From Woeseiaceae bacterium (GTDB lineage Bacteria > Pseudomonadota > Gammaproteobacteria > Steroidobacterales > Woeseiaceae): a stretch of DNA of 64,000 nucleotides. Both the position numbers and the translations under genes were made by a program. Below are positions 1-64,000 of the stretch, in pieces. The stretch lies in assembly GCA_028280615.1 (NCBI GenBank), contig JANQLK010000001.1, positions 23,793 through 87,792 of the forward strand, given 5' to 3'. A model generated the notes under the pieces. That model did no database searches, had not been told where the DNA came from, and saw only the letters and a program-made list of their open reading frames with translations. Numbering within the stretch: the stretch's first letter is position 1; each line of letters begins with the position of its first letter.

Positions 1-621
1 CTGCCGCCACTTCACGGAGCGCAGCTTCTCCTGGTCGGACATATTGCGGCGGCGAATGATATTGACGATCGTATCGTCGAGCATGCTGGCCGAGCGGTCC
101 ACGAGGATCAGCGTGCGTCTGCCATCGAGTTTCAGGCCGGTCAGGTACTGGCGCGCGCCCTGCCCCTGCTCGTCGAAGGTTCGGATCTTGGTGCCCTCGT
201 CCTGCTCCTCTTCGGCGGCCTGAATGAGCCGTGCCACCTCCTCCTCGAGCGACTTGATGTCCGACTGCAGCCGTTCGACCGCCTCGATCTGCGCAACCGT
301 GTCCTTGTCGTAGCGGGACAGTTCGAGCTTGAGTTCCTCGATCAGCGCCAGTATTTGCGCGATCTGGCCCTCGGCCGTTCGCTTCTGGTCGTCGAGCACC
401 TCGATCGTGTTCTTCGCGAGCACGAGGTTCTTGCGGCCCTCGAGGATCTCCCGCTCCAGCCGGGTCGTCTCGGCCATGAGGTTGGTCGGGTCCTGTTCGG
501 TCGTTTCGCGCACCTGCGCGTTGATGATCATGAAGAACAGGATCACGGCGCCGAAGCCACAGCTCATGCAGTCGAGAAACGACATGCTGAAGACCTCGAC
601 GGGGCGCCGCTTACGAGCCAT
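1..621 (-). CDS. Partial CDS (N-terminal ~207 aa; C-terminus lies beyond the window edge). Single-pass membrane protein with a TolR/ExbD-like basic N-terminus and an Asp-containing TM helix, then a long coiled coil and the start of a vWA-like domain.
   Basis: My own translation of the minus strand from ATG at 621 gives MARKRRPVEVFSMSFLDCMSCGFGAVILFFMIINAQ. A heptad-rich segment follows (IEELKLELSRYDKD...IKSLEEEVARLIQ), then RTLILVDRSASMLDD, where DRSAS fits the DxSxS MIDAS motif. It is absent from the ORF track because it runs off the window. Its start overlaps the upstream stop by 11 nt (ATGGCTCGTAA). Confidence 0.7.
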   Translation of the reverse strand, partial: MARKRRPVEVFSMSFLDCMSCGFGAVILFFMIINAQVRETTEQDPTNLMAETTRLEREILEGRKNLVLAKNTIEVLDDQKRTAEGQIAQILALIEELKLELSRYDKDTVAQIEAVERLQSDIKSLEEEVARLIQAAEEEQDEGTKIRTFDEQGQGARQYLTGLKLDGRRTLILVDRSASMLDDTIVNIIRRRNMSDQEKLRSVKWRQ

Positions 622-1975
622 CGGACGCCTCCGTCGTAATCAACCTGAGCTCGAACCCCGGCGTACCGACCCGGATGAGATCGCCGACCTGGAGCACCGC
701 GGAACCGTCGAAGCGATGACCGTTCAGGAACGTTCCGTAGCGGCTGTGATCGCGGACGACGCACTGTCCGTTCTCGACCGCCAGCGAACAGTGCTTGCGC
801 GACATGCCCGGCATCGCCTCGGGGAACTCGATATGCCGCTCACCCTGCGCCGGCTGTGAGCCCAGATTCAAGGGTTTGCCATTGATCGCGTAGGCCGTGT
901 TGCCGAACAGGACGTGTGTCGGTCGGCCACCCGCGGGCGTTTGCGCATCGCCGCCGACCTCGACGGGCGCCTGGTCCCAGGGCAGCTGGCGGACGAGGCT
1001 CACGCCGCCGCCCGGCGTGTGTTCCCGGGTGCGCTTGAGGGCGCCTCGGGCGGCCGCTCCGGTCTCGAGCAGGAACACCTCGCCGCCGACGCGGGCCTTG
1101 AGCATATCCGCCAGCCCGGGCAGCGATGCCGCGCGATCCGAGAGCTGAATCGCCGGCGTCTCGTCAGCCCGGCACAGCGTACGAAGCTGGCTGACGATCC
1201 GCTGGTAGACGGGCGCCGCCGCAGACACGAGCGCCAGGGCCTCGATGTCCGCCGTGTGTTCGATGCCGCGGTACTCGACGCCGACCGTAATCGTGCCGCC
1301 AGCCGACGCGTTGGCAAGCCAGCCCGGCAGGCGATCGAAGAGCAGCTGCTCGGTATCGGCCGTGTGCAGCGGATCGAATCGCGACTGCTGGACGAATGCC
1401 TCGGCCAGCGTGCGTATCCAGGCGTCGTAGAGGTGGCTCAGGCCAGCCGCTTCGACCAGCTCGGCCTTCTGCATTTGCGCCTGCCCCTCCTGGCCGATTC
1501 GGGTCATGAGCGTCGTGTGCAGGCTCAGGTCGACGTGCACGGGGGCGGCATCGACATACTGGCGGCGCGTCGCGGCGACGGCTGCGTCCACGAGCGACGC
1601 AACCGGAATACTGAGCTCGTTGCAAATCCCCAGGAACAGGCCCAGCTGCTCGGCCTGCATGTAGTGCGGCACGACGACCGTGACCCGGTCACCGTGCTGC
1701 CGGGCGACGGTCCAGAGCTGCTCGAGCTGCCGGCTGACGAGATCCGCGGACGACAGGTGGCGAAATCGATCGTCCGGCAGCGCATCCGTACTCAGGCTGG
1801 ACCAGAAATGCGAATGGATGCGGCGCGGCAGCATCCGCGCGTTGGCGTAGGCCTCTTTGCCCGTCGTAAGGCCGCCGTCCTCGAGCAGGGCGAAACCGGG
1901 CTCACGATAGACGACGGCCGAGTCGTTCAGTACGGATACGGCAGCATCGTTGATGTCGAGCGCAAGCAGCGTCAC
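611..1975 (-). CDS. Actin/Hsp70-like (ASKHA-fold-like, degenerate) N-terminal domain fused to a C-terminal FHA domain
   Basis: 454-aa ORF. The N-terminus LLALDINDAAVSVLN sits where Hsp70 has IGIDLGTTNS. The C-terminus MSRKHCSLAVENGQCVVRDHSRYGTFLNGHRFDGSAVLQVGDLIRVG carries FHA hallmarks (SRxH, NG, hydrophobic beta strands). Confidence 0.7.
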   Translation of the reverse strand: MTLLALDINDAAVSVLNDSAVVYREPGFALLEDGGLTTGKEAYANARMLPRRIHSHFWSSLSTDALPDDRFRHLSSADLVSRQLEQLWTVARQHGDRVTVVVPHYMQAEQLGLFLGICNELSIPVASLVDAAVAATRRQYVDAAPVHVDLSLHTTLMTRIGQEGQAQMQKAELVEAAGLSHLYDAWIRTLAEAFVQQSRFDPLHTADTEQLLFDRLPGWLANASAGGTITVGVEYRGIEHTADIEALALVSAAAPVYQRIVSQLRTLCRADETPAIQLSDRAASLPGLADMLKARVGGEVFLLETGAAARGALKRTREHTPGGGVSLVRQLPWDQAPVEVGGDAQTPAGGRPTHVLFGNTAYAINGKPLNLGSQPAQGERHIEFPEAMPGMSRKHCSLAVENGQCVVRDHSRYGTFLNGHRFDGSAVLQVGDLIRVGTPGFELRLITTEASDGS

Positions 1976-1991
1976 CCGGGACCCCTCGGCC

Positions 1992-2792
1992 TCAGTCGGC
2001 CTTCATGTGGCGAATCAGATTGACGTCGAGATACGTCTCGCTGTCGAAGACGAGCCGCTCCTGCAGGAGCTGCAGCTGATGTACGAGGAACATCAGGAAG
2101 ATACTGATCAACAGCGCAATGAACGTCGAGTTGAACGCGACACCAAGGCTCTGGGTCACGCCCGCGATGTCGCCCTGAACGGCCTTGTCGGCCTGCGCAA
2201 GCGCCTCGCCGATACCGCGAACGGTGCCGATGAAGCCGATCGAAGGGATGGCCCAGGAGATGTAGCGAATCATCGACAGCTCCGACTCGAGGCGCTCGGC
2301 TTCCGACTCGAACACCGTGTGCGTGCTGCTCGACACATCCTGGATGTTACGGGTCGAACTGAAACGGCGCAGCGCGTTGAGCAGCGCGCGCGGCAGCAAC
2401 ATCCGCTGACGGTCTTCGGGCAGCGCCTGGACCTGGCGTGCGAACTCGCGCGTGTCCTCGGGCAGTATTCGCATGCCTTCGGCGACCGGCACGAGGTCAG
2501 TTTCGAGCAGCCGGCGTTCCGACAGTATCGATGCGGCCTTGTAACCCATGATCGCGAGCGCCCATAGCATCAGGATGAAACAAGCCTCCTGCTCGAGGTC
2601 CTTGATCAGCACCCAGACGGAACGCTCGCGGACGTAGTCCGGGTCGGCCGCTGCGGCCGCGTTCTGTTCCTCGATGATTTGCGCCGCGTTGGGCCGCACC
2701 GCGGACACGTAAAACGCATGTACGACGATCACCGCGATGATCAGCGCGAACAGCTGGAATACGAATTCAATGGGAATGTTCTTTCTGTTCAT
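1992..2792 (-). CDS. MotA/TolQ/ExbB-family proton-channel-like membrane protein (atypical)
   Basis: 266-aa ORF with N-terminal TM helices, a cytoplasmic insert and C-terminal helices AIPSIGFIGTVRGIGEALAQ and FNSTFIALLISIFLMFLV. These compare with the canonical ExbB at 63614-64000 (LPLLGLLGTVSGMIKVF; ALVTTMAGLFTALSGLYF). Confidence 0.75.
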   Translation of the reverse strand: MNRKNIPIEFVFQLFALIIAVIVVHAFYVSAVRPNAAQIIEEQNAAAAADPDYVRERSVWVLIKDLEQEACFILMLWALAIMGYKAASILSERRLLETDLVPVAEGMRILPEDTREFARQVQALPEDRQRMLLPRALLNALRRFSSTRNIQDVSSSTHTVFESEAERLESELSMIRYISWAIPSIGFIGTVRGIGEALAQADKAVQGDIAGVTQSLGVAFNSTFIALLISIFLMFLVHQLQLLQERLVFDSETYLDVNLIRHMKAD

Positions 2793-2813: not shown

Positions 2814-3083
2814 TCAGATATCGGTCGGAAACGGTATCGACTGATCGGCATCGATTTCCTCGGTCGGACGAAAGTCCTCCTCCTCGATGTCGACGTAGGA
2901 CTCGTCGTCGATCACGAGTTCGTCGCCGGTCCCTGCGGCCTCTTCGGCCTCTTCGGCCTCGGCCGGCCCGTTCTCACCAGCGGCCGGCTCCTCGGCCGTC
3001 TCGTCATCGTCCTGCGGCAGCGCCTGCGCGCCGAGCGCCAGGCAGCCCAGGATCAGTAGCAGATAGACTCGTATGTCACGCAT
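2814..3083 (-). CDS. Small secreted (possibly lipidated) highly acidic protein
   Basis: 89-aa ORF. Signal peptide MRDIRVYLLLILGCLALGAQA (an ILGC lipobox-like motif or an AQA cleavage site). The mature part is extremely rich in D/E (DDDETAEEPAAGENGPAEAEEAEEAAGTGDELVIDDESYVDIEEEDF). It sits 22 nt upstream of the MotA-like gene. Confidence 0.55.
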   Translation of the reverse strand: MRDIRVYLLLILGCLALGAQALPQDDDETAEEPAAGENGPAEAEEAEEAAGTGDELVIDDESYVDIEEEDFRPTEEIDADQSIPFPTDI

Positions 3084-3181: not shown

Positions 3182-5605
3182 TTACTCCGCGTTGCGGACG
3201 ATCCGGAAGCCGACGTCGTCGCGCGCATCGGCGCCGTAATCGCGATAGCTCAGGCGCAGCTCGGTCATGCCGGCATGCCGCCAGCTGCCGCCGCGGATGA
3301 CGCGTGCGTTACCCGACGACGGTCCGACCGGGTCGACGACAGCCTGGGTCTGGCCGGGCGTCGGGACCGTGTAGTAATCGTTGACCCATTCGGCAACGTT
3401 GCCGCCGCCGTCGTAGAGCCCCAGGGCATTCGGGCGGAACGAGCCGACCGGCGCCGTCGACGTATAGCCGTCGTCGTAATTGAGCAGAATCGACGTCAGT
3501 ATGTCACCGCCGCTGCGATCCGCGAAGTTGCCCGCATCGCCTTTCGGAGGCCACTGGTCGCCCCAGGCGTACTTGGTCGTCGTCGGCCGGCCGGCGTAGC
3601 GCAGCGCCCATACCCACTCGGCTTCGGTCGGCAGCCGATAGCCGTTCGGGAACGGCAGGATCGCCTCATACTGACCGAACTTTTCCTCGTAGACGGGCGT
3701 GAGGCCCTCGCTGCGACTCAGGTGATTGCAGTACTCGGCAGCCTGCTGCCAGGTGACGGAGGCCACGGGGTTGCGGTCCCCGGCCAGCGATGCATGGGTC
3801 GCGCCACCCGAGTCGTGTTGCGCCTGGAAGGTTGCGAACTCACGGTTCGTCACTTCATGAATGCTGATGAAGTACGGCCTGGTCAGCGTGACGGGCACGA
3901 GCACCTCGTTGGCGCGCCGCCCCTGCACGCTTCGCGACGCACCCATCATGAACGTGCCCGGCTCGACGCGCCGCATGGTCTTGCCGTCCGGCGTTTCGAT
4001 CGTCGTCTGGATGCTGGCCCGCGCGATCTCCTGTTCCGAGCGCAGCCGTGCCGTCAGCGTCTGCGGATAACCCGGCCGCGGCGTCACGCTCTGGCTCCAC
4101 GAGGCGTAGCCGTCGCGGCGAACCTCGATGCGATGCGGCGCGGCGCTCAGGTTGAGCGTCGTGGTGCCGGTGCCGCGCAGCCTGCCGTCGACGAGCACCG
4201 ACGCGTCGGCGGGCTGCACGTTGACCGTCACGCGCCCCGTCTGTGCCGACAGGTCGACGGTAATCGCCTCGCTGGCCGCCGACCTGAGCCGCACCTGGCG
4301 CGAAGTCGAACCATAGCCGGCCTTGGAAAGGCCGATGCGATAGTCGATGTCGGGCGCGAGATCCAGCGTAATCGGCGACTGGCCGCGATAGCGGCCGTTG
4401 ACGAGAACATTGGCGCCGCGCGGGATCGTATTCACGCGTAGCCGGGCGTCCGCTTCCTCGAGCGTTATGAGCGGCAGACTCTTGGGCGAGTTGGCCACGG
4501 TCTCGACGGTGCCGTCCCATGCCTTGTAGCCCTCGGCCACCACGCTCAGCTGATGCTCACCCTCGACGAGTTCGATGACGGCCGGCGTCGTGCCGACGGC
4601 CTCCTCACCCGAGTAGATCGTCGCGCCCGCAGGCTCTGACGTGACGCTGACCTCCGCCCAGCGGGGCACGAGCTGCACGGCGAGGAGTTCCTCGCGGCCG
4701 AGGCCTTCGAACTGTATGACGTCGTCGTACGGCAGATAGCGCGCCGAGCGTACGCCTACGGTGTGACTGCCCGGCTGCAACTCGAATCCGGCAATTGGCG
4801 CCGCGCCGACCTCGTTGCCGTCGATCGACACGATCGCCTCGTCCTCGGCGTCGACGGCGACCGACAGCTTGCCCGGCAGCTTGCGGAGCGACACCGAGAC
4901 CGTCGTCGTCGGCTCATCGCGGACGACGAACGACTGACGCATGTCGTAGTAGCCGCGTTTTTCGACGTTGAGCGTATGCTCGCCCTGCCGCAGCAGCATA
5001 CGATCGCCGAGCGGCAGCTGAAACCAGCCGCCGCTTACGGACAGCGAGTCGACGTCGGCCGGCCGGACGTCGATCTCGACCGACTTCGCGGTAAACAACA
5101 GGTAGGACGCCGTGCCCAGGATCAGCGCGCCGGCGACGAGGACGTTCCGGAGCGCGTGATTGGCGGAACCGGTCTCGACGGGTTTGCTCTCGGTGGCGCG
5201 CTTGAAGGCCGTCGGCGCGATGGTTTCAGCCTCGGCCGCATCGGCTGCCGACGGCAGCTCGGGCGGCGCCGTCACATAGGCGCTGTCCTCGAGCCTGACC
5301 TCGAGTACGAGCTCTTCACCGAGCCGAACCGTGAGCCGGCTGCCGTAGTACCCGAGCTCGTCGCCGTCGGCCAGGCGTCGGCTCGCGGTCAACGCTTCAC
5401 CGTTGACCGTTGCACCCGAGTCGCGGCCGACCGACTGGACGAAAGGGGCATCGTCGAGAATATCGAGCATGACGACCGGGCTGCCACCCGGCCCGGGCAG
5501 GCGAAGATCGCTGTCGCTGCCCGTGCCGATCCGGAGCGGCAACTCATCGGCGGCGACGCGGCGCTCGCCCTCGACGTCGCGGATGATCAGGTGGTCGAGA
5601 CTCAA
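3182..5605 (-). CDS. FHA domain - TM helix - about 5 PEGA-like repeats - FGE/SUMF1 (formylglycine-generating-enzyme-like) domain that lacks the catalytic cysteines
   Basis: 807-aa ORF. N-terminal FHA-like segment (LRIGTGSDSDLRLPG...TVNGEAL...LADGDEL). TM helix ALRNVLVAGALILGTASYLLFTA. Repeated about 50-aa units (e.g. ARLRVNTIPRGANVLVNGRYRGQSPITL). C-terminal FGE-sulfatase signature GTFMMGAS...HEVTNREFATF...GYRLPTEAEWVWA...GNVAEWVNDYY...RVIRGGSWRH. The apparent TTG start overlaps the kinase stop (TTGA). Confidence 0.8.
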   Translation of the reverse strand: MSLDHLIIRDVEGERRVAADELPLRIGTGSDSDLRLPGPGGSPVVMLDILDDAPFVQSVGRDSGATVNGEALTASRRLADGDELGYYGSRLTVRLGEELVLEVRLEDSAYVTAPPELPSAADAAEAETIAPTAFKRATESKPVETGSANHALRNVLVAGALILGTASYLLFTAKSVEIDVRPADVDSLSVSGGWFQLPLGDRMLLRQGEHTLNVEKRGYYDMRQSFVVRDEPTTTVSVSLRKLPGKLSVAVDAEDEAIVSIDGNEVGAAPIAGFELQPGSHTVGVRSARYLPYDDVIQFEGLGREELLAVQLVPRWAEVSVTSEPAGATIYSGEEAVGTTPAVIELVEGEHQLSVVAEGYKAWDGTVETVANSPKSLPLITLEEADARLRVNTIPRGANVLVNGRYRGQSPITLDLAPDIDYRIGLSKAGYGSTSRQVRLRSAASEAITVDLSAQTGRVTVNVQPADASVLVDGRLRGTGTTTLNLSAAPHRIEVRRDGYASWSQSVTPRPGYPQTLTARLRSEQEIARASIQTTIETPDGKTMRRVEPGTFMMGASRSVQGRRANEVLVPVTLTRPYFISIHEVTNREFATFQAQHDSGGATHASLAGDRNPVASVTWQQAAEYCNHLSRSEGLTPVYEEKFGQYEAILPFPNGYRLPTEAEWVWALRYAGRPTTTKYAWGDQWPPKGDAGNFADRSGGDILTSILLNYDDGYTSTAPVGSFRPNALGLYDGGGNVAEWVNDYYTVPTPGQTQAVVDPVGPSSGNARVIRGGSWRHAGMTELRLSYRDYGADARDDVGFRIVRNAE

Positions 5606-7962
5606 ATGGGTTCCTCGCAGCGAACGACAATGGGCTGCATGTCGATTTCGGGCGCGACGCGAAACTCGAGGCGCACGTCCCGGAAACCGGGGCGACTGCC
5701 GACGGCAACGTAGGTCCCCGGGCGCAGCGATAGTTCGGTCGATGCAAAGCTGCCCAGTTTACCAACCCGGTAAATCGAGACGTCGGTCGCGTTGTCGCTG
5801 ACGATCTCGACGGTCAGCGGCGTCGCGGCGCGCTTGAGAAGCCTCGAGAGCTCGTCGCGGGCCGTCGTCAGCCGCGGCCCGATGTCGCCCTGCCGCGTGA
5901 TGTCGACAACGAGCGTCGTGGCCGCCTGCATCGTGCGCGGCGAACTCAGGCTGTCGGGATCTTCGATGTAGGCATCGATCTGCTCGTGCAGTTCGACCAT
6001 ACCGTCGGCGCGCGCGAGCCCTTGTTTCGCGAACTGGAGGTTACCGTCCAGCTTCAGTATCTCGCCGTAGGTCCCGGCCGCCGCCTGCCACTCCTCGGCG
6101 GCCTCCTGTTGCTTGGCTTGCGCCTCCAGCGCCATGATCTGCTTGAGCCTCAGGCCCTGGTCGACCTGCAGCAGGCCATCGGCCGGCTCGGGCGACGAAG
6201 GCTTGAGCTGCTGCGCAATTCTGAACGCCGCGCGCGCCGACAAGAGATCACCCTCGGCCAGCGCGTTGAGGCCCTCGCTCATGCGCGCGTCGAAGGCCAA
6301 TTGTCCGGCCGTCTCGCGGCTGCGCTCAAGCGCTTCGCGAGCGGGTTGCCACTCCGGATCGAGATCGAGCGCCGCTTCGAAGCGCTCGATCGCCGCGTCG
6401 AGCGCAAGCTCGCGCTCCAGTGACAGGCCTTCGTTGGTCATGGCAATGACGTCATCGAGATTCCTGGCTCGTGCGAGCCCTGCTCGGGCAGGACCGTGAC
6501 TCGGCGTGATCGCGACCGCGAGTTCGTAGAGCCGCAGCGCCTCCGCCGAGTCGGCCGCGTCGAGCGCCGTTTCGGCATCGGCGAGCGTCCGCTCGAACAC
6601 GCGGTCGACCTCCTCGAGCAGCGGCTCGACGAGCTCGATGGCCCGCTCGTAGTTTTCTTCGGCGAGCGCGAAGTCACGTTCGAGGTAGGCTTCGTCGCCT
6701 GACGCGTAGGCGTCTTTCGCCTGCTGCCATGCGACCCCGCCCCAGCGCTCGACCGCGCGCCCCTCCAGCGTCCGGGTCTTCGCCAGCAGTTCGCCGAGCG
6801 TCTCGTCGACCTGCTGACGGCTGAGTACGCGCTGATCTCTAGCCGGCCGCGATTCGGCGGCGGGCGCCTCGGAGTCCGGCTCGGACTCGGACCCAGGCAC
6901 GGATTCGGTTTCCGTCGCCGCGGCGGCGGGCTCGGCATCGGCAGGCGGCGCGCTGGTTTCGTTCACGGCGGACGGCAGCAGGAATACGACCCCGAGCAAC
7001 ACCGCGACCAGCACGGCCAGCGCGATGCCAACCGTTCGCGTGCTCAACCCGCCCTGCGGCGTCGACTGTGGGGCGGACGCTTTGGCCGGACGCGGGCCGC
7101 GATCGACGACGAGCTGATCGGCCGCGATCGTGGCGTCGCCGCCCGGCCCGGACAGGCCGAGCAGTTTGCGGCTCGCAGCGCCACCCTGAATACCGGCGTC
7201 CGCCAGCGCATCGACGACCGCTTCGGCATCGGGACGCGCGGCGGCATCCTTGTCGAGCATGGCCGCGACCAGCGACGTAACGGCAGGCCCGGGCGAGCTG
7301 CCGTCGTTCGACACGAGCGGGGGTGGCACGAGTTTCACGATGTCCTCGGCCGTCGTCGCCGAGCCGTACGGCGAGCGGCCGGCTACGAGCTCGTAGATCA
7401 GTCCACCGAGCGCGAAAACATCGTCCGCCGGCGTGGGCGCCTCGCCGGCGAGCTGCTGCGGCGACAGGGCGATCAGCGAACCGCCGCCGACGGGATCGCC
7501 GGCTGCCGCGGCCACGCCGAAATCGATCAGGTAGGGCGCACCGTTCTGATCGAACAGTACGTTCGCTGCCTTGATGTCCCGGTGAACGACGCCCTTGCCA
7601 TGCGCATAGCGAAGCGCATCCGCGACCAGCGCCATCGGCTTCAGGATCTCGTCCGCCGGCGCAGCGGATAGCGCGGACGCATCGGGTCCGTCGATGTACT
7701 GCATTGCATAGAACGGACCGTCGGCGTCTTCGTGAAACTCGAAGACGCGCGCGATATGCGCGTGCATGAGACGAACACTGAGCTGCCACTCGCGACGCAG
7801 CATGTCGGCGGGCAGTGCCGGATCCGTAACGATCTTGAGTGCGACGTCGGTACCGGTCATCCGGTCGCCGGCACGCCAGACCTCGGCAGTGCCCCCGGCC
7901 GCGAGCCGGTCCGCAAGAGTATACCGGTCTGCGAGCTTCAGACCGCTCTTCAGGTCACGCAT
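5602..7962 (-). CDS. Hanks-type Ser/Thr protein kinase with one TM helix and a periplasmic TPR region plus a C-terminal PEGA-like module
   Basis: 786-aa ORF. Kinase motifs are VALKIV, VVHRDIKAANVL and DFGVAAAAG. TM helix VGIALAVLVAVLLGVVFLLP. TPR-like helical repeats follow. C-terminal LTVEIVSDNATDVSIYRVGKLGS...LRPGTYVAVGSRPGF. Confidence 0.85.
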   Translation of the reverse strand: MRDLKSGLKLADRYTLADRLAAGGTAEVWRAGDRMTGTDVALKIVTDPALPADMLRREWQLSVRLMHAHIARVFEFHEDADGPFYAMQYIDGPDASALSAAPADEILKPMALVADALRYAHGKGVVHRDIKAANVLFDQNGAPYLIDFGVAAAAGDPVGGGSLIALSPQQLAGEAPTPADDVFALGGLIYELVAGRSPYGSATTAEDIVKLVPPPLVSNDGSSPGPAVTSLVAAMLDKDAAARPDAEAVVDALADAGIQGGAASRKLLGLSGPGGDATIAADQLVVDRGPRPAKASAPQSTPQGGLSTRTVGIALAVLVAVLLGVVFLLPSAVNETSAPPADAEPAAAATETESVPGSESEPDSEAPAAESRPARDQRVLSRQQVDETLGELLAKTRTLEGRAVERWGGVAWQQAKDAYASGDEAYLERDFALAEENYERAIELVEPLLEEVDRVFERTLADAETALDAADSAEALRLYELAVAITPSHGPARAGLARARNLDDVIAMTNEGLSLERELALDAAIERFEAALDLDPEWQPAREALERSRETAGQLAFDARMSEGLNALAEGDLLSARAAFRIAQQLKPSSPEPADGLLQVDQGLRLKQIMALEAQAKQQEAAEEWQAAAGTYGEILKLDGNLQFAKQGLARADGMVELHEQIDAYIEDPDSLSSPRTMQAATTLVVDITRQGDIGPRLTTARDELSRLLKRAATPLTVEIVSDNATDVSIYRVGKLGSFASTELSLRPGTYVAVGSRPGFRDVRLEFRVAPEIDMQPIVVRCEEPI

Positions 7963-7976
7963 TGCCGTTGAGCCAC

Positions 7977-9212
7977 CTACGACGTCGGCTCGGTGGCCCG
8001 GACCGGAGCCCCGACTTCGATCTCCTCGGTGAAACCGGTTTCGGCCTCGTAGAGTTCCCTGAGAATCTTGCGCCAGGACTCGTATTGCGCTGCGGCCGTG
8101 CCCGTGAGACGGCGCGCCTGGCCCTCGACGTTGACGACCATGGGAGCGGCCTCCGAGCCGAACGAAACGGCCAGTTCCTCAATGGCTTCGACGTGTATCG
8201 ACGCCTCCGTGTTGCGAGTGATACCGCCCATGATGGTATTCAAGCCCTCGGCGATACCGATATTCTGCAGGCTGCGCTTGACGTTCCGCTCCGTGCGGCT
8301 GCTGCTGTCGGTGTCGACGCTCAGCGACGCCGCGACGACCACGACACCCATGAGCGTCTGCAACGCAGCCGATCGCTTTACCTGCCGGTAGTTGACGGCT
8401 TCCTCGCGGGACGCCTTGCGATACGCGTGGTACGGAATCGCAATCCCGTAGTAGAAATTGGCGTAGTGCTCGTTCAGCATGTCGACGACCAGGCGGTCGC
8501 GTTCGCGGATTCGCCGCAGCCGGTCGACCGCCGGATCGTTATCGGCCGGCAACCGCGAAACCGTTACGATGCCGTCCTCGTCGGTGGCGAGGTGGTTGCC
8601 GTAGACCTGCGGTGACATGTCGCCGAAGAACTTGAGTTCCGAAATCTGCCGCAGGTCCTCAACGTAGTCGGTGCCGAGCGACTCCGCGTGAGCATGTATG
8701 TCGTTGGCGATATCGTTGAATACTTTCTGGTACGGATCCTGGCGCCGATCGCGGTTTTCGGAGTAGGACGACACGCCCGTCTGCGTTTCGTAGTCTTTCT
8801 CATACCATTCGCGGCCGCTCGTATCCGAAACCGTTACCTCGAGTTCGACGAACTCGCCGTCGGATTTCTTGATGCGAGCGTTGACGATGACGTCGGTGAA
8901 GGCGTCGGCGGACGGCAGCACGCGAACCGCGCCCCAGTGTCCCGTGCCCTGCATCGTGTTCTTGAGGTGGTAGGCAAGGTAGCGCGCCTCGGCCTCTCGA
9001 ATCTCGGTGTGTATGCGCGTTTTCTCGGGTTGGTTGTCCTCGGGGATACCCGCGTCGAACTCGATGATGCCGATGTCGAGCAGCCGCGATTCGGCCTTCT
9101 CGCCGTCAGCAACGACCAGCTCGGTCTCGTCCGCGTTGATTACTTCGTTGACCGTGCACCCGCCGGCGGCGAATGCCGCGGCAATCATGATTACAAGCCT
9201 TCTCGTCATCAT
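7977..9212 (-). CDS. Lipoprotein of unknown function
   Basis: 411-aa ORF. Signal peptide with lipobox MMTRRLVIMIAAAFAAGGC. There is an internal hydrophobic stretch LQTLMGVVVVAASLSV. I recognise no family. It lies 15 nt upstream of the kinase gene. Confidence 0.6.
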   Translation of the reverse strand: MMTRRLVIMIAAAFAAGGCTVNEVINADETELVVADGEKAESRLLDIGIIEFDAGIPEDNQPEKTRIHTEIREAEARYLAYHLKNTMQGTGHWGAVRVLPSADAFTDVIVNARIKKSDGEFVELEVTVSDTSGREWYEKDYETQTGVSSYSENRDRRQDPYQKVFNDIANDIHAHAESLGTDYVEDLRQISELKFFGDMSPQVYGNHLATDEDGIVTVSRLPADNDPAVDRLRRIRERDRLVVDMLNEHYANFYYGIAIPYHAYRKASREEAVNYRQVKRSAALQTLMGVVVVAASLSVDTDSSSRTERNVKRSLQNIGIAEGLNTIMGGITRNTEASIHVEAIEELAVSFGSEAAPMVVNVEGQARRLTGTAAAQYESWRKILRELYEAETGFTEEIEVGAPVRATEPTS

Positions 9213-9230: not shown

Positions 9231-10580
9231 CTAGTTTGCTGTCGAAATCCCTTTGTACTTGCGGTACTCGTCCCAAAGCCGTTCGCGCAGCGCGGGGTCC
9301 TCTTCGACCAGCGCAGCCTCGCGCAGCTGGCGGGCAATGATATCGTCGTCGATCATGGACGGAACGTCGTCGGGCGTTCGCTCTTCGATCTGTTCTCGTG
9401 AGAGGCCCGCCATCGGTGAGGCCTGGCCACCGCCGACGGAACCGCTGCCGGAGCCGCCGCCCTCGCTGCCACCCATCGACGTCTGCGATCCGAGGCCGAT
9501 CAGTTCGCCCGCACCGCGTCCGCCCTCTTCTCCCTCGATGTCGAAGCCCTCCATGACCCGGCCGGCGCCGGCAATTGCGCGCTGTTCTTCCTGCAGGGTC
9601 TCGTCGAAACCGCCAATCGACTCGTCGAGCTCACGCCCGAGGCGGGCCGCGCGTTCTTCGGCGCTTTCGCCGGGAAACTCACCGACGCCACCGGCGCCGC
9701 CGGTTCCGGTCGTGCCGCCGCCCGGCGATCCGCCGCCGCCTCCGGACGCACCGCCTCCGGACGCACCGCCACCGGATGCACCGCCTCCGGAAGCACCTCC
9801 GCCGGAGGCACCACCGCCACCGGCCGCGCCGCCGCCGGACGATGAGGATGACGACTGGCTTTCGCTGGACGAGGAGCTTTCACTGGACGACGAACCGCCG
9901 CCACCGCCGCCGCCGATGCACTCGCCAGCCTGGCCCATGCCGCCGACGCCGCCCGGCAGCGCGCCACCGTCGCCGCACTCCCCGCTGCCGCCGTCTTCGT
10001 TCGGATCCGAGAACGGATCGTCTTCGCCTTCTCCTCCGCCGGAGCCGCCCGTCGCACCTGACTGGCCCTCGGCGCCGCCTCCCGCACCCTGCTCGCTCGG
10101 CGGCGGTGGAATTTCGCCGACGGATCCGCCGCCGCCCTGGCTGCCCGCGGAACTCTCAGCCCCACCGCCGGGCGCGCCGCCCTGCTGTGGAAAGCCACCG
10201 GACGCGCCGCCGCCCGATGGCGATTGACTACCGCCCGACGGCGACTGGCTGCCACCGGAGGGTGACTGACTGCCGCCCGACGGCGACTGACTACCGCCAG
10301 ACGGCGATTGGCTTCCGCCCGACGGGGACTGGCTGCCGCCCGACGGCGATTGACTGCCACCCGAGGGTGACTGGCTGCCGCCCGACGGAGGCGACGGTGG
10401 CGACGGTGGCGATGGCATGCCGCCACTGGGCGGCGACGGCATACCCGCAGGCGGCGTCGTCGGTCCTCCGGAACGAGTCATTGACGTATTGCAACCCGCA
10501 AGCACCAGCGTCGTGGCACTGACCAGTAGCAGCGGCTTGAGCCATGTCGCGTTGTTGCGCGCGTAATGTCTGGAATGCAT
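9231..10580 (-). CDS. Low-complexity Gly/Ser/Pro-rich lipoprotein with tandem peptide repeats and a conserved-looking helical C-terminus
   Basis: 449-aa ORF. Lipobox LVLAGC. Contains 8x GGSQSPS, 5x GGGAS, poly-Ser/Glu tracts and the C-terminal DDDIIARQLREAALVEEDPALRERLWDEYRKYKG. Confidence 0.65.
   Translation of the reverse strand: MHSRHYARNNATWLKPLLLVSATTLVLAGCNTSMTRSGGPTTPPAGMPSPPSGGMPSPPSPPSPPSGGSQSPSGGSQSPSGGSQSPSGGSQSPSGGSQSPSGGSQSPSGGSQSPSGGSQSPSGGGASGGFPQQGGAPGGGAESSAGSQGGGGSVGEIPPPPSEQGAGGGAEGQSGATGGSGGGEGEDDPFSDPNEDGGSGECGDGGALPGGVGGMGQAGECIGGGGGGGSSSSESSSSSESQSSSSSSGGGAAGGGGASGGGASGGGASGGGASGGGASGGGGGSPGGGTTGTGGAGGVGEFPGESAEERAARLGRELDESIGGFDETLQEEQRAIAGAGRVMEGFDIEGEEGGRGAGELIGLGSQTSMGGSEGGGSGSGSVGGGQASPMAGLSREQIEERTPDDVPSMIDDDIIARQLREAALVEEDPALRERLWDEYRKYKGISTAN
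9738..9812 (-). repeat. Five tandem 15-bp in-frame coding repeats (GGGAS x5)
   Basis: Plus-strand units are gcctccggacgcacc x2, gccaccggatgcacc, gcctccggaagcacc and tccgccggaggcacc. Confidence 0.85.
10215..10382 (-). repeat. Eight tandem 21-bp in-frame coding repeats (heptapeptide GGSQSPS x8)
   Basis: Plus-strand units are cgatggcgattgactaccgcc / cgacggcgactggctgccacc / ggagggtgactgactgccgcc and so on. The peptide repeat is identical in all 8 copies, and the DNA differs only at synonymous positions. Confidence 0.9.
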
Positions 10581-10805: not shown

Positions 10806-11663
10806 CTAGGCCGGTTTCCTGAAGATTATCAGAGACATATCGTCGGGCTTGCTCGGTTCGCCCTGTGCCGCTGTCGCCATTCTGCGCTGAACTTCGGCAA
10901 CGACCGCATCCACGGCCGTATCGATGCTCCCCTTGCGCGTCATCTCGACGAGCTCGTCGAGATGGAGATTGTCCGTGACGCCGTCGCTTGCCAGCACGAC
11001 CGTGTCGCGCGCCTTGAGTTCGGCACTGGCGCCGACGTCGATACTCATGTCGGGCGTGCCGATGAAATTGGACACGAGGTGGCGGTCCCGGTGGTGCAAG
11101 GCATCGCGTTCATCGAGAAACCCGGCCTCGACGGCGAAGCCCGTCGGGGAATGCGCCGTGGTCTGCAGTCGAATCAGGCCGCGCTGACCGATCACGAGCG
11201 CCTCCGAGTCGCCGACCTGGTAGGTCCGCGCGAGGCGCCCCTCGATCGTGACCACGGTTAGCGTCGTCGCCGATCCGTTACTCAGGTCGCGAACGGCCGT
11301 GTTGGCCGCTTCGATGCCGTCGAGCACGGCCGTCCTCAGAAGCCGGGTCTGTTCCAGCGATGTCCTGAGCGATGCGGCCAGGGCATCGACGGCCGTACTC
11401 GATGCTCGCTTGCCGGCCGGCAGTCCGCCGGCGCCGTCGGCCACGACCAGGACCGCGGCCTGCGGTCCCCAGGGTATGGCCGCCACCGTATCCTCGTTTT
11501 CGGTCTCCTTCATGGGCGAGCGCCGCGTGTAGGCCACGAGCCTGCCGCCGGCGACCTCGAAAGACTGCCGGTCCGGCGCCACGGCGCCGTCGAGGACCAC
11601 GGTGCCGTCGGGCCTTTCCGCGCCGACGCTAGCCACGGCTGACGGGCTCCCGGCACCACGCAC
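10806..11663 (-). CDS. PP2C-family Ser/Thr protein phosphatase
   Basis: 285-aa ORF with VLVVADGAGGLPAGKRASSTAV, YQVGDSEALVIG and VVLASDGVTDNL. An alternative GTG start at 11636 would give an 8-nt overlap (GTGGCTAG) with the upstream kinase stop. Confidence 0.85.
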   Translation of the reverse strand: MRGAGSPSAVASVGAERPDGTVVLDGAVAPDRQSFEVAGGRLVAYTRRSPMKETENEDTVAAIPWGPQAAVLVVADGAGGLPAGKRASSTAVDALAASLRTSLEQTRLLRTAVLDGIEAANTAVRDLSNGSATTLTVVTIEGRLARTYQVGDSEALVIGQRGLIRLQTTAHSPTGFAVEAGFLDERDALHHRDRHLVSNFIGTPDMSIDVGASAELKARDTVVLASDGVTDNLHLDELVEMTRKGSIDTAVDAVVAEVQRRMATAAQGEPSKPDDMSLIIFRKPA

Positions 11664-12921
11664 AGTAATGCCAGTGCTCCCTGGCGATGCCCCATTTGCA
11701 GCGGCGGCAGCGGCTGCGGCTGCCGGGCAGCGGCCAGGGCTTGCGGACCTTGCTCCGGCACCACGGGCAGTAGCGCATGAACGGCATCAGGTCGCCCCGG
11801 CAACGGGGGTTTGCGCATTTGCTCGTGTAGCGCTTGTCGCGATAGCGGCGCGGCGTCTCTTCGACGAAGCCGGGCCCCCAGCACCAGGGGCAGTAGTCCC
11901 AGTCATTCTTGACTCCCCGCTCGCAGCGCGGGCAGCTCGAGCTTTCGCGTGACTCGACGCCGCGGGTCGGGTCCTCGACGCCGCACCACGGGCATGCGTG
12001 CATGCTTTCGGCAACGGGCCCCTCGCAGCGCCGGCAGGCATGCCGCGTGTCGAGCGCCGAGCGATACCGGCGCTGAAAATCTCGCCAGTCGGACCCGACC
12101 GTGTCGCCGGCCTCGAACCTGGCTCCCCGCGCGCGGCCGGGTTTCTGTTGCCTCGCGTGGCTGTTCAGGCGCTCGAAGTGCGCCAGCATCTCGATGCAGG
12201 TTCGGTAGCGCCTTGCAGGGTCGAGCTGAATGGCCTTGCGCAGCATCGCGACGAACTCCGGCCGCACGCGCGCGGTCAGCTTGTCGTAGCCCTTGAGCGG
12301 CCACTCGAACGGCCATTCCGGGAGTACCCCGGAGAACAGCCGGTAGATGACGAGGCCGGCCGAGAACACGTCGGACTGGAATTTCGGGCGGCCCATGGCC
12401 TGTTCCGGAGCGATGTAGTCGATCGTACCGGAGCCCGACGCCTTGAGCGTGCGCAGGCTGAGCTTCGCGAAACCGAAGTCCGCGAGCTTGAGACGGTTGC
12501 CCGGGAACAGGATGAAGTTCTCGGGCTTGACGTCGCAGTGGATAATCTTGTGCTCATGCGCATACGCCAGGCTCGCGAGCGCCTGGCCGGCCAGATCGAT
12601 GGCGCGGGCCGTCGAGATGCGGCGCTCGAGCCGGTCCGCCAGTGACTGCTCGCCGAGCTCCATGGCGATGACGAAATCGTCGCCGATGTATTCGGCATTG
12701 GTAACCGAGAGAATGTTCGGATGCCTGAGCCTGACGGCGACCTGCACCTCGTGCAGCAACTCCTCGTGATCCACGTCCTCACCGGCGCGCGGTACCTTGA
12801 GTGCAACGCGGCTTCGGTGGATCGTGTCGTAGGCGACGTACACCGTGGATAGCGGACCACTCGAGAGTCGCGACAGAATGCGATACTTGCCAATCTTCTG
12901 CCGTGCTTTCAGCAAGGACAT
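11629..12921 (-). CDS. Cytoplasmic Hanks-type Ser/Thr kinase (non-RD, HCD catalytic loop) with four tandem C-terminal zinc-ribbon motifs
   Basis: 430-aa ORF. Motifs are VALKVP, IIHCDVKPENFIL, LADFGFAK and GTIDYIAPEQ. The C-terminus holds CRRC..CPWC, CPRC..CPWC, CANPRC..CPWC and CRRC..CAWC. Confidence 0.85.
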   Translation of the reverse strand: MSLLKARQKIGKYRILSRLSSGPLSTVYVAYDTIHRSRVALKVPRAGEDVDHEELLHEVQVAVRLRHPNILSVTNAEYIGDDFVIAMELGEQSLADRLERRISTARAIDLAGQALASLAYAHEHKIIHCDVKPENFILFPGNRLKLADFGFAKLSLRTLKASGSGTIDYIAPEQAMGRPKFQSDVFSAGLVIYRLFSGVLPEWPFEWPLKGYDKLTARVRPEFVAMLRKAIQLDPARRYRTCIEMLAHFERLNSHARQQKPGRARGARFEAGDTVGSDWRDFQRRYRSALDTRHACRRCEGPVAESMHACPWCGVEDPTRGVESRESSSCPRCERGVKNDWDYCPWCWGPGFVEETPRRYRDKRYTSKCANPRCRGDLMPFMRYCPWCRSKVRKPWPLPGSRSRCRRCKWGIAREHWHYCAWCREPVSRG

Positions 12922-63200: not shown

Positions 63201-63614
63201 TTACTGGCCGGGCGGCGTCGCGGCGACGGCGACGTTATCGACGCCGGCCAGCCGCGCCTGGTCGAGAACCTCGATGACGAGGCCCGTACGCGAGGAATCG
63301 TCGGCCAGGATCACGACCGAACCCTCCGGATTCTCGGCGTGCAGCCGCTCGACGTGGCCGCGTACGCTCCGCGGGTCGACGCGCTGCCGATCCACCCAGA
63401 CCTCGCCGTTCTCGGTGACCGCAATCATGATATTGGCCTGCTGCTTGGTCTGCGCCGTGCGCGCGCTGGGCCGTTCGATTTCGACGCCCGCCTCCTTGAC
63501 GAACGACGCATTGACGGCGAAGAAGATCAGCAGGATGAAGACCATGTCGATCAGCGGGGTGATGTTGAGCGCCGAGGCTTCGCCCTCGGTTTGCAGATGG
63601 TCGCGTGTCGCCAC
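63201..63614 (-). CDS. exbD: Biopolymer transport protein ExbD/TolR
   Basis: GTG start at 63614, overlapping the exbB TAG by 1 nt. It has ALNITPLIDMVFILLIFFAV (conserved TM Asp) and VILADDSSRTGLVIEVLD. Confidence 0.85.
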   Translation of the reverse strand: MATRDHLQTEGEASALNITPLIDMVFILLIFFAVNASFVKEAGVEIERPSARTAQTKQQANIMIAVTENGEVWVDRQRVDPRSVRGHVERLHAENPEGSVVILADDSSRTGLVIEVLDQARLAGVDNVAVAATPPGQ

Positions 63615-64000
63615 TATCGATCCTCCACGAGTTCGGCCTCGAAACGACGGGCGGTGTCCTGAGCCCGCGACTCGAGGTCGGATACGAAGTACAGTCCGGA
63701 CAGGGCCGTGAACAGGCCGGCCATCGTCGTGACCAGCGCCTCGGAAATGCCGGAGGCCATGCCGCGCGTGTTGCCGGTGCCGAACACGGTGATGACGTCG
63801 AAGACCTTGATCATGCCGGAGACCGTCCCGAGCAGACCCAGCAGCGGCAGGATCGTCGTCAGCGCGTTGAGCGCCGGCAGGTTGCGATTCGCCTCGGCGC
63901 GGAAGTCGTCGACCAGCGCCTGGACGCGGCGGAACGACTGCACGCGGCCCGGCGTCTTGCCCTTTTGCCATTCATCGGCAAGCTCGCGTTGGAACCGCGG
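63614..64000 (-). CDS. exbB: MotA/TolQ/ExbB proton channel (partial; N-terminus beyond the window edge)
   Basis: LPLLGLLGTVSGMIKVF and GISEALVTTMAGLFTALSGLYF. The reading frame stays open to position 64000. Confidence 0.85.
   Translation of the reverse strand, partial: PRFQRELADEWQKGKTPGRVQSFRRVQALVDDFRAEANRNLPALNALTTILPLLGLLGTVSGMIKVFDVITVFGTGNTRGMASGISEALVTTMAGLFTALSGLYFVSDLESRAQDTARRFEAELVEDR

Follow-up and report, generated by a model that had tools for sequence, protein, structure and literature searches.

In the Woeseiaceae genome studied here, a gene for a MotA/ExbB-like channel subunit lies close to a gene whose product begins with an aspartate-bearing transmembrane (TM) helix and continues into a coiled coil and a vWA domain, which raises the question of whether these proteins form an ion-driven motor or the channel finds its partner elsewhere. 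The original prediction, made from the letters of a 64,000-nt window (the whole stretch of DNA analysed), favored a motor and described an atypical stator-like pair. We consider it probable that what lies here is the downstream portion of a conserved module that spans the envelope and centers on a proton-driven motor of the 5:2 type. The motor type itself is not new and was predicted computationally in PMC12204202 (2025).

The channel subunit and its surroundings

Judged from its sequence, the 266-aa protein encoded at 1992–2792 (− strand) is a MotA/TolQ/ExbB-family subunit carrying both pore threonines. The motif IGFIGTVRGI, on which its assignment as MotA/ExbB-like had been based, was located in this reading frame, and the protein matches PF01618 (MotA_ExbB) in Pfam with E = 7e-15 (55.3 bits against a cut-off of 22.9). 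Alignment places T190 in GFIGTVRGI (nt 2211–2237) and T223 in AFNSTF (nt 2121–2138) opposite T145 and T178 of Escherichia coli TolQ (8odt_A), respectively. In the Mot, Exb, and Tol motors the threonine ring and an Asp form the essential proton pathway (PMC10666116). Hydropathy indicates four hydrophobic helices and a cytoplasmic loop of about 85 aa, and among 69 orthologs TM3 (0.93) and TM4 (0.86) show the highest conservation of the protein. We propose it as the pentameric A subunit. The motif used for comparison, LGLLGTVSGM, was found in the canonical ExbB of the ExbB/ExbD pair at 63201–64000 (−), the ExbD of which contains NITPLIDMVF.

As had been claimed, no ordinary ExbD, TolR, or MotB gene accompanies the channel gene. 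A phmmer search (E < 1e-5) with the window's single ExbD as query detected no ExbD homolog across the roughly 1.4 Mb of loci and none within about 10 kb, and the same query found no further ExbD in the window besides the canonical pair 60 kb away. Directly past position 1, where a separate ExbD- or MotB-like gene would have spoken against the prediction, orthologous loci carry vWA-B, a paralog of the edge-cut gene (vWA-A) with the same Asp helix; its presence next to this window is predicted from those loci. The vWA-A and vWA-B genes adjoin in all loci with coverage. Directly downstream of vWA-B lie a YiaD/PdsO-type OmpA protein, small lipoproteins, or unrelated genes, and no MotB-type subunit is found among these gene families. 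The OmpA-domain gene of the Woeseiaceae, which is absent in other lineages, encodes a YiaD/PdsO-type protein with a signal peptide and a glycine zipper and without a TM Asp.

Between the channel gene and vWA-A, and unmentioned in the original prediction, lies a gene for a 454-aa cytoplasmic protein (611–1975, −), the stop of which overlaps the vWA-A start; this position departs from the usual adjacent AB arrangement. The N-terminal 340 residues or so have the predicted fold of an Hsp70/DnaK nucleotide-binding domain (NBD; actin-like ATPase) with degenerate phosphate loops: the AlphaFold2 model (pLDDT 84.6) matches DnaK/Hsp70 NBDs in Foldseek with E of about 1e-16 and TM-scores of 0.65–0.74, which are normalized to targets that are NBD-only chains. 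An FHA domain follows at residues 383–437 (Pfam, E = 3.2e-11). The NBD-like gene occurs in 55 of the 58 loci that are fully covered. The proposed stator pair is thus supported as an A subunit with a putative Asp-helix B-type protein, though it is not a simple pair: there are two B paralogs and an additional gene between A and B.

The Asp helix, the stalk, and the vWA head

The vWA-A gene (1–621, −) starts at 621 with MARKRRPVEVFSMSFLDCMSCGFGAVILFFMII and is read for 207 codons, which cover the basic tail, the Asp helix, the coiled-coil stalk, and the start of the vWA domain. Its C-terminal half is predicted from orthologous loci, in which the full-length proteins measure 353–365 aa. The basic N-terminus and the TM helix with an embedded Asp are both present as described: the helix, which we propose as the proton-carrying one inside the MotA-like pentamer, comprises residues 10–33 (VFSMSFLDCMSCGFGAVILFFMII, nt 523–594), with the Asp17 codon at 571–573. 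The basic tail before the helix and the acidic segment after it predict an N-in topology, and by the positive-inside rule the vWA stalks and heads would be periplasmic.

Across 84 vWA-A sequences with identity down to 30%, F15, D17, G24, and L28 are invariant; C21, G22, F23, and A25 are near-invariant, and the motif FSxSFLDxMxCGFGA persists at about 30% overall identity. The Asp is retained in 82 of 83 vWA-A copies and in 80 of 81 vWA-B copies, the sole exceptions being an N-terminally truncated copy and a likely assembly error, respectively. Searches for a relationship of the Asp helix to ExbD, TolR, or MotB gave no match in Pfam at E up to 10 and no stator chain in a PDB profile search, and hhalign returned a probability of 5% with only seven columns aligned around the Asp. 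The helix is TolR/ExbD-like only as architecture (invariant Asp17, N-in), with no detectable sequence homology.

It could be that this helix is a mere anchor, that the vWA proteins are tethered periplasmic scaffolds or adhesins of Ser/Thr-kinase/FHA signaling, and that the MotA-like protein uses a B subunit from elsewhere (e.g. the genome's ExbD or TolR) or is a channel by itself. We regard this as unlikely. The missing similarity to ExbD, TolR, and MotB speaks for it, but plain TM anchors encoded in the same operons are conserved at only 0.48 (kinase) and 0.39 (PEGA/FGE protein), whereas the Asp helix is the best-conserved segment of both vWA proteins (0.76 in A, 0.87 in B). The membrane-embedded Asp and G24, both invariant, and the four near-invariant residues at positions 21–23 and 25 also argue against an anchor. 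A canonical ExbB/ExbD is available in the same genome, yet these two genes adjoin and make their own pair; likewise, the Hsp70-like/FHA gene stands between the MotA-like gene and the vWA genes, yet MotA-like and vWA genes co-occur in 58 of 58 loci across phyla.

The heptad-rich coiled coil of about 110 aa expected behind the TM helix was borne out as a helical stalk, predicted to be periplasmic, at residues ~34–150 (nt 172–522, −). Hydrophobic periodicity over residues 38–150 of vWA-A is strongest at 3.5 residues, and the AlphaFold2 model of a full-length ortholog (P0010) consists of a single helix at 10–137 (pLDDT 93–97 for residues 51–130), a linker, and a vWA fold at 168–355. Spacing from the Asp to the MIDAS is constant at 154–158 residues in vWA-A (78 loci), and stalk length in vWA-B is likewise constant at 141–145; conservation of the stalk sequence is only 0.54 despite this constant length. 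The MIDAS motif DRSAS is present as described, at residues 175–179 (nt 85–99, −), and in 84 diverse sequences S175 and D282 (P0010 numbering) are invariant, with D173 and S177 kept in at least 90%. We assign the C-terminal domain to the vWA fold from PF13519, precomputed on many full-length proteins among 2400 vWA-A homologs, together with the MIDAS residues, a VWA_2 match of P0010 below the cut-off (E = 5.7e-5, 24.1 bits against 27), and a Foldseek search of the P0010 model in which vWA folds top the list at E of only about 2e-3; the assignment is weak by both sequence score and Foldseek E-value. The vWA B-type proteins have neither a peptidoglycan-binding domain nor a recognizable plug segment.

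Conservation and composition of the module

Relatives of the vWA protein occur in at least 593 species-level genomes. Synteny was compared in the best 80 loci from such genomes, which belong to Gammaproteobacteria, Desulfobacterales, Myxococcales, Acidobacteriota, and Kiritimatiellia. The order MotA-like, (Hsp70-like), vWA-A, vWA-B is kept across these 80 genomes, accompanied by a TPR protein, a PEGA/FGE protein, and lipoproteins, and the MotA-like proteins of the compared loci are 50–100% identical. All 58 fully covered loci contain the MotA-like protein, vWA-A, vWA-B, PEGA, FGE, and the TPR region. Kinase and FHA occur together in 34 of them, FHA only in 11, and neither in 13; none has the kinase only.

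Upstream of the channel gene, and likewise on the − strand, the first gene encodes an 89-aa acidic protein with a signal peptide (2814–3083), detected in most Woeseiaceae-type loci. It is followed by an 807-aa bitopic PEGA/FGE protein (3182–5605), assigned with Pfam, an NCBIfam-type profile, and a domain table, in which a weak FHA-like cytoplasmic N-terminus (E = 0.016) precedes one TM helix and a periplasmic part with five PEGA repeats (E = 2.9e-47) and an FGE-sulfatase domain (E = 3.5e-42) resembling GldK/PorK. The next gene (5602–7962) encodes a 786-aa Ser/Thr kinase (Pkinase E = 2.5e-28) with one TM helix, a periplasmic TPR region, and a C-terminal beta-sandwich. Every copy of the module has the periplasmic half of this protein, and 34 of 58 loci have its kinase half as well; a homolog without the kinase (L085) aligns to residues 540–786 with E = 4e-32. 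Two predicted lipoproteins without known domains follow, one of 411 aa (7977–9212, lipobox AAGGC) with a conserved position in the module and one of 449 aa (9231–10580, lipobox LAGC) that is the module's first gene outside Woeseiaceae. A PP2C-type protein phosphatase (10806–11663; PP2C_2 E = 4.9e-15) was seen upstream of the module in no loci other than those of Woeseiaceae type (L001 and the upstream fragments L009, L010, L016, and L024), and a second Ser/Thr kinase with a double zinc ribbon (11629–12921; Pkinase E = 6.2e-34, DZR E = 8.3e-8) probably belongs to the local regulatory set.

The proposed motor and known systems

That the Asp-helix/stalk/vWA proteins would fill the role of B-type partner to the MotA-like channel, as originally suggested, is supported by the conserved Asp, the pore threonines, synteny in 58 of 58 loci, the absence of ExbD, and the independent AF3 modeling in PMC12204202. 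Our structure predictions were of monomers, and from the above we infer an assembly in which five MotA-like subunits would surround a heterodimer of the vWA-A and vWA-B Asp helices. Proton flow via the Thr-ring/Asp site would make pentamer and dimer rotate relative to each other, as happens in MotAB, ExbBD, and TolQR, and the fixed-length helix, extending some 100 residues (about 15 nm) beyond the membrane, would set the height at which the two MIDAS-bearing heads bind a partner, for which the co-conserved lipoproteins, the PEGA/FGE protein, and the TPR protein are candidates. The dimer might be held in place by its heads while the pentamer turns, or it might itself turn and pull its ligand. 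In the Woeseiaceae lineage, the TPR protein carries a fused Ser/Thr kinase that may gate assembly or activity by phosphorylation; the PP2C phosphatase and the FHA domains, strong on the Hsp70-like protein and weak on the PEGA/FGE protein, could join in this regulation. Outer-membrane tethering, surface movement, and secretion are candidate tasks.

The closest known family is that of PMC12204202, in which TPH-vWA proteins with a conserved Asp are paired with tolQ homologs, heterologous pairs occur, and an AF3 model has the two Asp residues enclosed by the Thr ring. Going by that paper's description of the family (Idiomarina loihiensis seed), our loci have in common with it the N-terminal TM tether with a conserved Asp on vWA proteins, tight tolQ-like synteny without tolR, exbD, or motB, the heterologous pairs, and an occurrence in Proteobacteria and the Verrucomicrobia-related PVC group. 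The arrangement that the original prediction called unusual is thus already in print. The words kinase, PEGA, sulfatase, Hsp70, DnaK, and coiled are absent from the text of PMC12204202; the wider conserved module, the fixed-length coiled-coil stalk, and the kinase/FHA overlay, all found here, are therefore not described there.

With TolQ–TolR(–TolA) and ExbB–ExbD(–TonB) the proposed motor shares an A subunit that belongs to the same Pfam family and has both pore threonines, N-in B-type proteins whose single TM helix carries its Asp toward the cytoplasmic end, and, in its inferred role, the passing of proton-motive force to the outer envelope. Unlike in those systems, the B helix lacks sequence similarity to TolR/ExbD and the ExbD periplasmic domain, there are two different B paralogs, and a TolA/TonB-type transducer with an SHLS helix is not present as a protein of its own, the B subunit itself bearing stalk and head. 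Four helices seem to make up the A subunit, not three as in TolQ and ExbB. This topology is that of MotA–MotB and PomA–PomB (PMC10666116), in which a stretch of about 16 hydrophobic residues likewise comes after the Asp of the B helix; in contrast to these, the cytoplasmic loop is short, and the B proteins lack an OmpA-like peptidoglycan-binding domain.

Another reading keeps the same motor and has it drive secretion or gliding in an apparatus like T9SS (PorLM with the FGE-fold PorK ring) or Agl-Glt, in place of a Tol-like tether; we give it little credence. The 5:2 motor with a B-type subunit forming a long periplasm-spanning dimer recalls GldL–GldM/PorL–PorM, and the universally co-conserved PEGA/FGE protein matches GldK (TIGR03525) with E = 1.7e-29, but at 103 bits against a cut-off of 350 this reflects the generic FGE fold, and the protein is anchored in the inner membrane with PEGA repeats and is not a lipoprotein as PorK/GldK are. 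GldL and GldM come from other protein families and carry different charged residues, in line with the original remark that T9SS is a parallel of different architecture. The Myxococcus AglR5–AglQ/AglS motor offers a precedent for a heterodimeric B pair in a TolQ-like pentamer and for docking of an FHA-TMH protein (GltG), and its force path includes the vWA-domain protein CglB (PMC11761067); AglQ and AglS, however, are TolR-like without vWA, and CglB is a separate outer-membrane lipoprotein. Although at least two lipoproteins are co-conserved in our module, it has no conserved outer-membrane barrel gene, and homologs of GldL, GldM, GldN, SprA, and Glt proteins were not detected.

A Zorya-like or other anti-phage conflict system reusing a MotA-like channel together with vWA, kinase, and FHA parts, the last three being common in such systems (PMC7159879), is highly improbable: Zorya, the other parallel named at the outset, does reuse a MotA-like/MotB-like 5:2 core outside motility, but the channel helices match ZorA only marginally (E of about 1e-3 to 3e-2; PADLOC, NCBIfam), the long cytoplasmic ZorA tail, a ZorB-type peptidoglycan-binding B subunit, and ZorC, ZorD, and ZorE are lacking, the other proteins have no significant PADLOC match, and 2.9 million viral contigs held no relatives, whereas both the order of the genes and their sequences are conserved from phylum to phylum, the components are mostly periplasmic or lipoproteins, and in Woeseiaceae the cluster is flanked by syntenic housekeeping genes.

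The operon and its proposed channel subunit

The minus strand at the left end of the window carries the final part of a long operon. It comprises, from upstream to downstream, a Ser/Thr kinase with a double zinc ribbon (11629–12921), a PP2C phosphatase (10806–11663), two predicted lipoproteins lacking known domains (9231–10580 and 7977–9212), a protein combining a kinase domain, one TM helix and a TPR region (5602–7962), a bitopic protein in which five PEGA repeats are combined with an FGE-sulfatase domain (3182–5605), a small acidic secreted protein (2814–3083), a 266-residue member of the MotA/TolQ/ExbB family (1992–2792), a 454-residue protein with a C-terminal FHA domain (611–1975) and the vWA gene vWA-A (621–1), which is cut by the window edge. 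The stop codon of the 454-residue gene overlaps the ATG of vWA-A. This gene, lying between the MotA-like and vWA-A genes, went unmentioned in the original prediction, whose quoted sequence strings were all found in the window and whose central observation, a MotA/ExbB-like protein encoded close to a TM helix with an embedded Asp that leads into a coiled coil and a vWA motif, is confirmed.

The 266-residue protein had been read as a MotA/ExbB-like channel, and it matches Pfam PF01618 (MotA_ExbB) above the curated threshold over its two C-terminal channel helices (residues 135–248; E = 7e-15; score 55.3 bits, cut-off 22.9). T190 (GFIGTVRGI) and T223 (FNSTF) align with T145 and T178 of Escherichia coli TolQ (8odt_A); in Mot, Exb and Tol motors the path that protons must take is formed by a threonine ring together with the B-subunit aspartate (PMC10666116). 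Conservation of GTVRGI and FNST reaches at least 95% among 72 aligned sequences, and across 69 orthologs (50–100% identical) the most conserved segments are TM3 (0.93) and TM4 (0.86). Hydropathy suggests two extra N-terminal helices; the protein would then have four helices laid out as in MotA, and its cytoplasmic loop would be short (~85 residues). The window also contains a canonical ExbB and ExbD pair (63201–64000, minus strand), whose ExbD finds matches among the solved structures of ExbD and TolR (E = 1e-8 to 6e-5). The MotA-like protein is a distant paralog of this ExbB (63.6–64.0 kb, cut by the window edge); phmmer found no connection between the two at E < 1.

The Asp helix, stalk and head of the vWA proteins

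The part of vWA-A inside the window spans 207 codons. They encode the tail MARKRRP, a hydrophobic helix (VFSMSFLDCMSCGFGAVILFFMII) that contains Asp17, a helical region whose hydrophobic periodicity is 3.5 residues and the segment LILVDRSASM, so that each element claimed for this protein (basic N-terminus, TM helix with embedded Asp, heptad helix and DRSAS MIDAS motif, the last at nt 85–99) can be read in the translated gene. The rest of vWA-A, and its paralog vWA-B, were deduced from orthologous loci; a 95.5-kb NCBI contig encodes proteins with 100% identity to the MotA-like and FHA proteins of the window. Full-length vWA-A relatives are 353–365 residues long, and a library-wide search recovered 1523 representatives at 50% clustering. 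The AlphaFold2 model of the full-length ortholog P0010 consists of a continuous helix (residues 10–137), a disordered linker and an alpha/beta domain (168–355). Foldseek places vWA folds at the top of the matches to the C-terminal domain, with weak E values (2e-3 to 4e-2); the VWA_2 profile scores 24.1 bits on P0010, under its 27-bit cut-off, and PF13519/PF13768 are precomputed on many vWA-A homologs. Among 84 vWA-A sequences the MIDAS residues S175 and D282 (P0010 numbering) are invariant, D173, S177 and G257 occur in at least 90%, and the consensus at the MIDAS Thr position is GGTSL.

The next gene in the orthologous loci encodes vWA-B, a paralog of 329–332 residues that starts MSKRRRNVDAFSLSFLDCICCGFGAIILL, likewise contains a coiled coil and has DTSGS as its MIDAS motif; it follows vWA-A in every orthologous locus with coverage. 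The TM Asp is kept in 82 of 83 A copies and 80 of 81 B copies. The exceptional A copy (locus L014) is truncated at its N-terminus. The sole B copy without the Asp, at ~7014–8498 of locus L028, looks like a compensated frameshift or local assembly error in a third-party MAG and not like a genuine variant; it reads FSLSFLGSIRRGCGA in place of FSLSFLDCICCGFGA.

One possibility is that the Asp helix of these proteins serves only as a membrane anchor. The kinase and the PEGA/FGE protein encoded in the same loci each have a single TM anchor, and these anchors provided an internal control: conservation is 0.76 (vWA-A) and 0.87 (vWA-B) for the Asp helix versus 0.48 (kinase) and 0.39 (PEGA/FGE protein) for the control anchors, and the helix is the best-conserved part of both vWA proteins. 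Across 84 vWA-A representatives with identities down to 30%, F15, D17, G24 and L28 never vary, and L16, C21, G22 and A25 hardly do. D17 lies six residues inside the hydrophobic stretch, near the cytoplasmic end of a single TM helix that is predicted from its charge distribution to be oriented N-in. This conservation, taken with a buried Asp that never varies and with the small-residue motif CGFGA, points to a specific partner within the membrane; the obvious candidate is the equally conserved TM3/TM4 of the MotA-like protein.

The original prediction had further called the helix “TolR/ExbD-like.” The part of this description that stands is the single, predicted N-in helix with an invariant Asp; sequence similarity was not recovered. 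A Pfam scan of seven N-terminal peptides at E values up to 10 gave nothing relevant and no ExbD/TolR (PF02472) match, and a helix-profile search of the PDB returned no ExbD, TolR or MotB chain, only a chance CGFG match in NDUFB4. HMM–HMM comparison did not bear out the similarity either: when the helix was compared with an alignment of ExbD/TolR TM segments drawn from PDB matches, hhalign reported a probability of 5% and paired SFLDCMS with PLIDMVF alone, Asp on Asp. We do not claim descent from ExbD, TolR or MotB: the helix resembles theirs in architecture and context, not by demonstrable descent.

Could a conventional B subunit be encoded just beyond position 1? The original prediction had allowed for this case, and the orthologous loci speak against it, as the genes that come next there are vWA-B and then an OmpA-type, lipoprotein or unrelated gene. 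In Woeseiaceae, vWA-B is followed by a 241-residue OmpA-domain protein, which we rejected as a MotB substitute because it has a signal peptide, lacks a TM Asp, resembles PdsO/YiaD and is confined to this family; it also contains a glycine zipper, and its closest families are PdsO/YiaD-type outer-membrane proteins. Outside Woeseiaceae the gene is replaced by one or two predicted lipoproteins or by unrelated genes; the lipoproteins are conserved, ~210–240 residues long and without known domain (loci L035, L050, L073 and L076; L085, 12003–13276). A phmmer search with the single ExbD of the window (E < 1e-5) found no ExbD in any locus within ~10 kb on either side, a search that would miss divergent ExbD/TolR proteins and MotB proteins.

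Between membrane and head, the distance from the Asp to the MIDAS is nearly constant: 154–158 residues in vWA-A and 141–145 in vWA-B over 78 loci (85–573 in the window), with the stretch in vWA-A always 10–17 residues longer. Because the length is so constant though stalk sequence is only moderately conserved (0.54), the stalk appears to be under a length constraint, which suggests a spacer or ruler that must reach a fixed height. At 0.15 nm per residue, the ~100 helical residues past the membrane correspond to an estimated height of roughly 15 nm. Co-variation of the A and B stalk lengths was considered as a test for a heterodimer and discarded (r = −0.06), since the lengths do not vary; the result was reread as the length constraint.

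A conserved module around the predicted motor genes

Relatives of the vWA protein occur in at least 593 genomes in a scan using one genome per species. The best 80 loci belong to Woeseiaceae, other Gammaproteobacteria, Desulfobacterales, Myxococcales, Acidobacteriota and Kiritimatiellia, and the order of the genes does not change among them: lipoprotein, lipoprotein, TPR(+kinase), PEGA/FGE, MotA-like, Hsp70-like(+FHA), vWA-A and vWA-B. Domain presence was counted in 58 fully covered loci. The TPR region, PEGA, FGE, MotA-like protein, vWA-A and vWA-B are each present in all 58, and the Hsp70-like gene in 55. Kinase and FHA occur together in 34 loci, FHA without a kinase in cis in 11 and neither in 13, while no locus (0/58) has the kinase without FHA. 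Because the two co-vary in this manner, phospho-regulation looks as if it had been added to an older module that had no kinase. The distant locus L085 (34% identity) confirms this pattern, with a TPR protein lacking the kinase and an Hsp70-like protein lacking FHA. In the present genome the PP2C and second Ser/Thr kinase genes (10806–12921, minus strand) lie directly upstream of the module; PP2C is also found there in other Woeseiaceae loci, and unrelated genes take that place in other lineages. Two loci with this environmental gene cluster, L067 and L076, belong to bins assigned to Klebsiella pneumoniae and Enterobacteriaceae, assignments that look doubtful (possible mis-binning or mislabelling).

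The Hsp70-like protein is the 454-residue product of 611–1975. In its predicted model (pLDDT 84.6) the N-terminal ~340 residues adopt the fold of an Hsp70/DnaK nucleotide-binding domain (Foldseek E ~1e-16), with target-normalised TM-scores of 0.65–0.74 against NBD-only Hsp70/DnaK chains. The canonical phosphate loops DxGTT and DLGGGT appear to be replaced by LDINDAA and VDLSLHT, positions judged by eye rather than by residue-level alignment; the family retains N9, D10, D149 and H153 without exception. ATPase activity is uncertain given the apparent loop replacements, and the protein may be a pseudo-ATPase or scaffold.

In the PEGA/FGE protein (3182–5605), the FGE domain has its best NCBIfam match in PorK/GldK, the ring lipoprotein of T9SS (E = 1.7e-29, under the cut-off). 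A weak FHA match (E = 0.016) was seen at its N-terminus in the window, and none in three other lineages. PEGA repeats have been described as peptidoglycan-associating (PMC7159879), so this protein could supply the wall anchor absent from the B subunits.

Known motors and a possible envelope machine

A motor of the kind proposed for this locus has recently been predicted. TPH-vWA proteins carry a TM-tethered vWA domain and a conserved Asp, co-occur tightly with tolQ homologs in the absence of tolR/exbD, and mostly occur as heterologous pairs; in AF3 models the Asp pair lies within a threonine ring (PMC12204202, 2025). Likewise, here a tethered vWA protein with a conserved Asp is encoded beside a tolQ homolog, with no tolR, exbD or motB found in synteny, and the vWA genes form a heterologous pair, as seen from vWA-B in the orthologous loci. 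Every testable feature matches, the comparison being made by described features rather than with the Idiomarina loihiensis seed sequence. Conservation, synteny and an independent model in the literature support the interpretation as a putative vWA-headed proton motor. The text of PMC12204202 makes no mention of kinase, PEGA, sulfatase, Hsp70, DnaK or coiled, and no other description of the wider module was found in the literature searched; vWA-type partners fall outside a 2025 mBio survey of MotAB (PMC12505986). Three results appear to extend the published picture: the conserved module that surrounds the proposed motor, the co-variation of kinase and FHA, and the fixed length of the stalk.

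Beyond Tol/Ton, the closest working analogy is the myxobacterial Agl-Glt system, in which an AglR pentamer is combined with a heterodimer of AglQ and AglS; an FHA-TMH protein docks on this motor, and the system includes a vWA adhesin (PMC11761067). A second parallel is T9SS, with its PorLM motor and the FGE-fold PorK. Unlike MotB/PomB, both vWA-A and vWA-B end in vWA domains instead of a C-terminal OmpA-like peptidoglycan-binding domain, and unlike ExbD/TolR, the predicted periplasmic part of vWA-A is a coiled coil plus vWA. Zorya (ZorAB) differs as well, since ZorA has a long C-terminal tail and ZorB a peptidoglycan-binding domain, whereas the A subunit here has just 266 residues. ZorA matches were only marginal and limited to the channel helices, no ZorC/D or ZorE genes and no other PADLOC families were detected and a search of viral contigs found no relative, so a defence system is an unlikely reading. 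Assignment to vWA-MoxR or ternary conflict systems was dismissed, as their description (PMC7159879) does not mention MotA, ExbB or TolQ.

It is conceivable, and we put it forward tentatively as somewhat short of probable, that the motor is only the central part of an envelope machine of 8–12 genes that has not been described before, phosphorylation-switched in many lineages and with a new outer-envelope task. Its universal parts would be a pentamer of the MotA-like protein, a pair of vWA-headed B subunits whose stalks are fixed in length, the bitopic PEGA/FGE protein and the TPR protein of the periplasm; the conserved lipoproteins and a cytoplasmic partner resembling an Hsp70 ATPase would be near-universal. 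In many lineages a regulatory layer of eukaryote-type Ser/Thr kinase, FHA domains and PP2C would let phosphorylation switch assembly or activity of the 5:2 motor, and the task itself might be tethering, surface movement or secretion. To our knowledge, all characterised 5:2 proton motors (Mot, Exb, Tol, Agl, Gld, Zor) transmit work via a peptidoglycan-binding B subunit or a separate transducer. Here the Asp helix is fused straight to a predicted rigid stalk and metal-dependent binding head, a different coupling design that, if it works as we infer, would be the most direct known coupling of proton flow to a periplasmic ligand. The family is widespread, with at least 593 species-level genomes of abundant sediment and soil bacteria carrying it. 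The PEGA/FGE, TPR and Hsp70-like proteins and the lipoproteins are candidate targets or controllers of the motor, and the kinase/FHA co-variation bears on motor control.

Current annotations (“VWA domain-containing,” “FHA domain-containing” and “MotA/TolQ/ExbB proton channel family” protein) obscure the link among these genes. Many public gene calls (P0002, P0008, P0012, P0020 and others among the homologs) also start vWA-A at the internal Met of MSFLDC, which removes the conserved basic tail and puts the Asp at residue 5. Because the RR...FS upstream of this Met is conserved, we place the true start 12 codons earlier (in locus L002, 10001 vs 9965).
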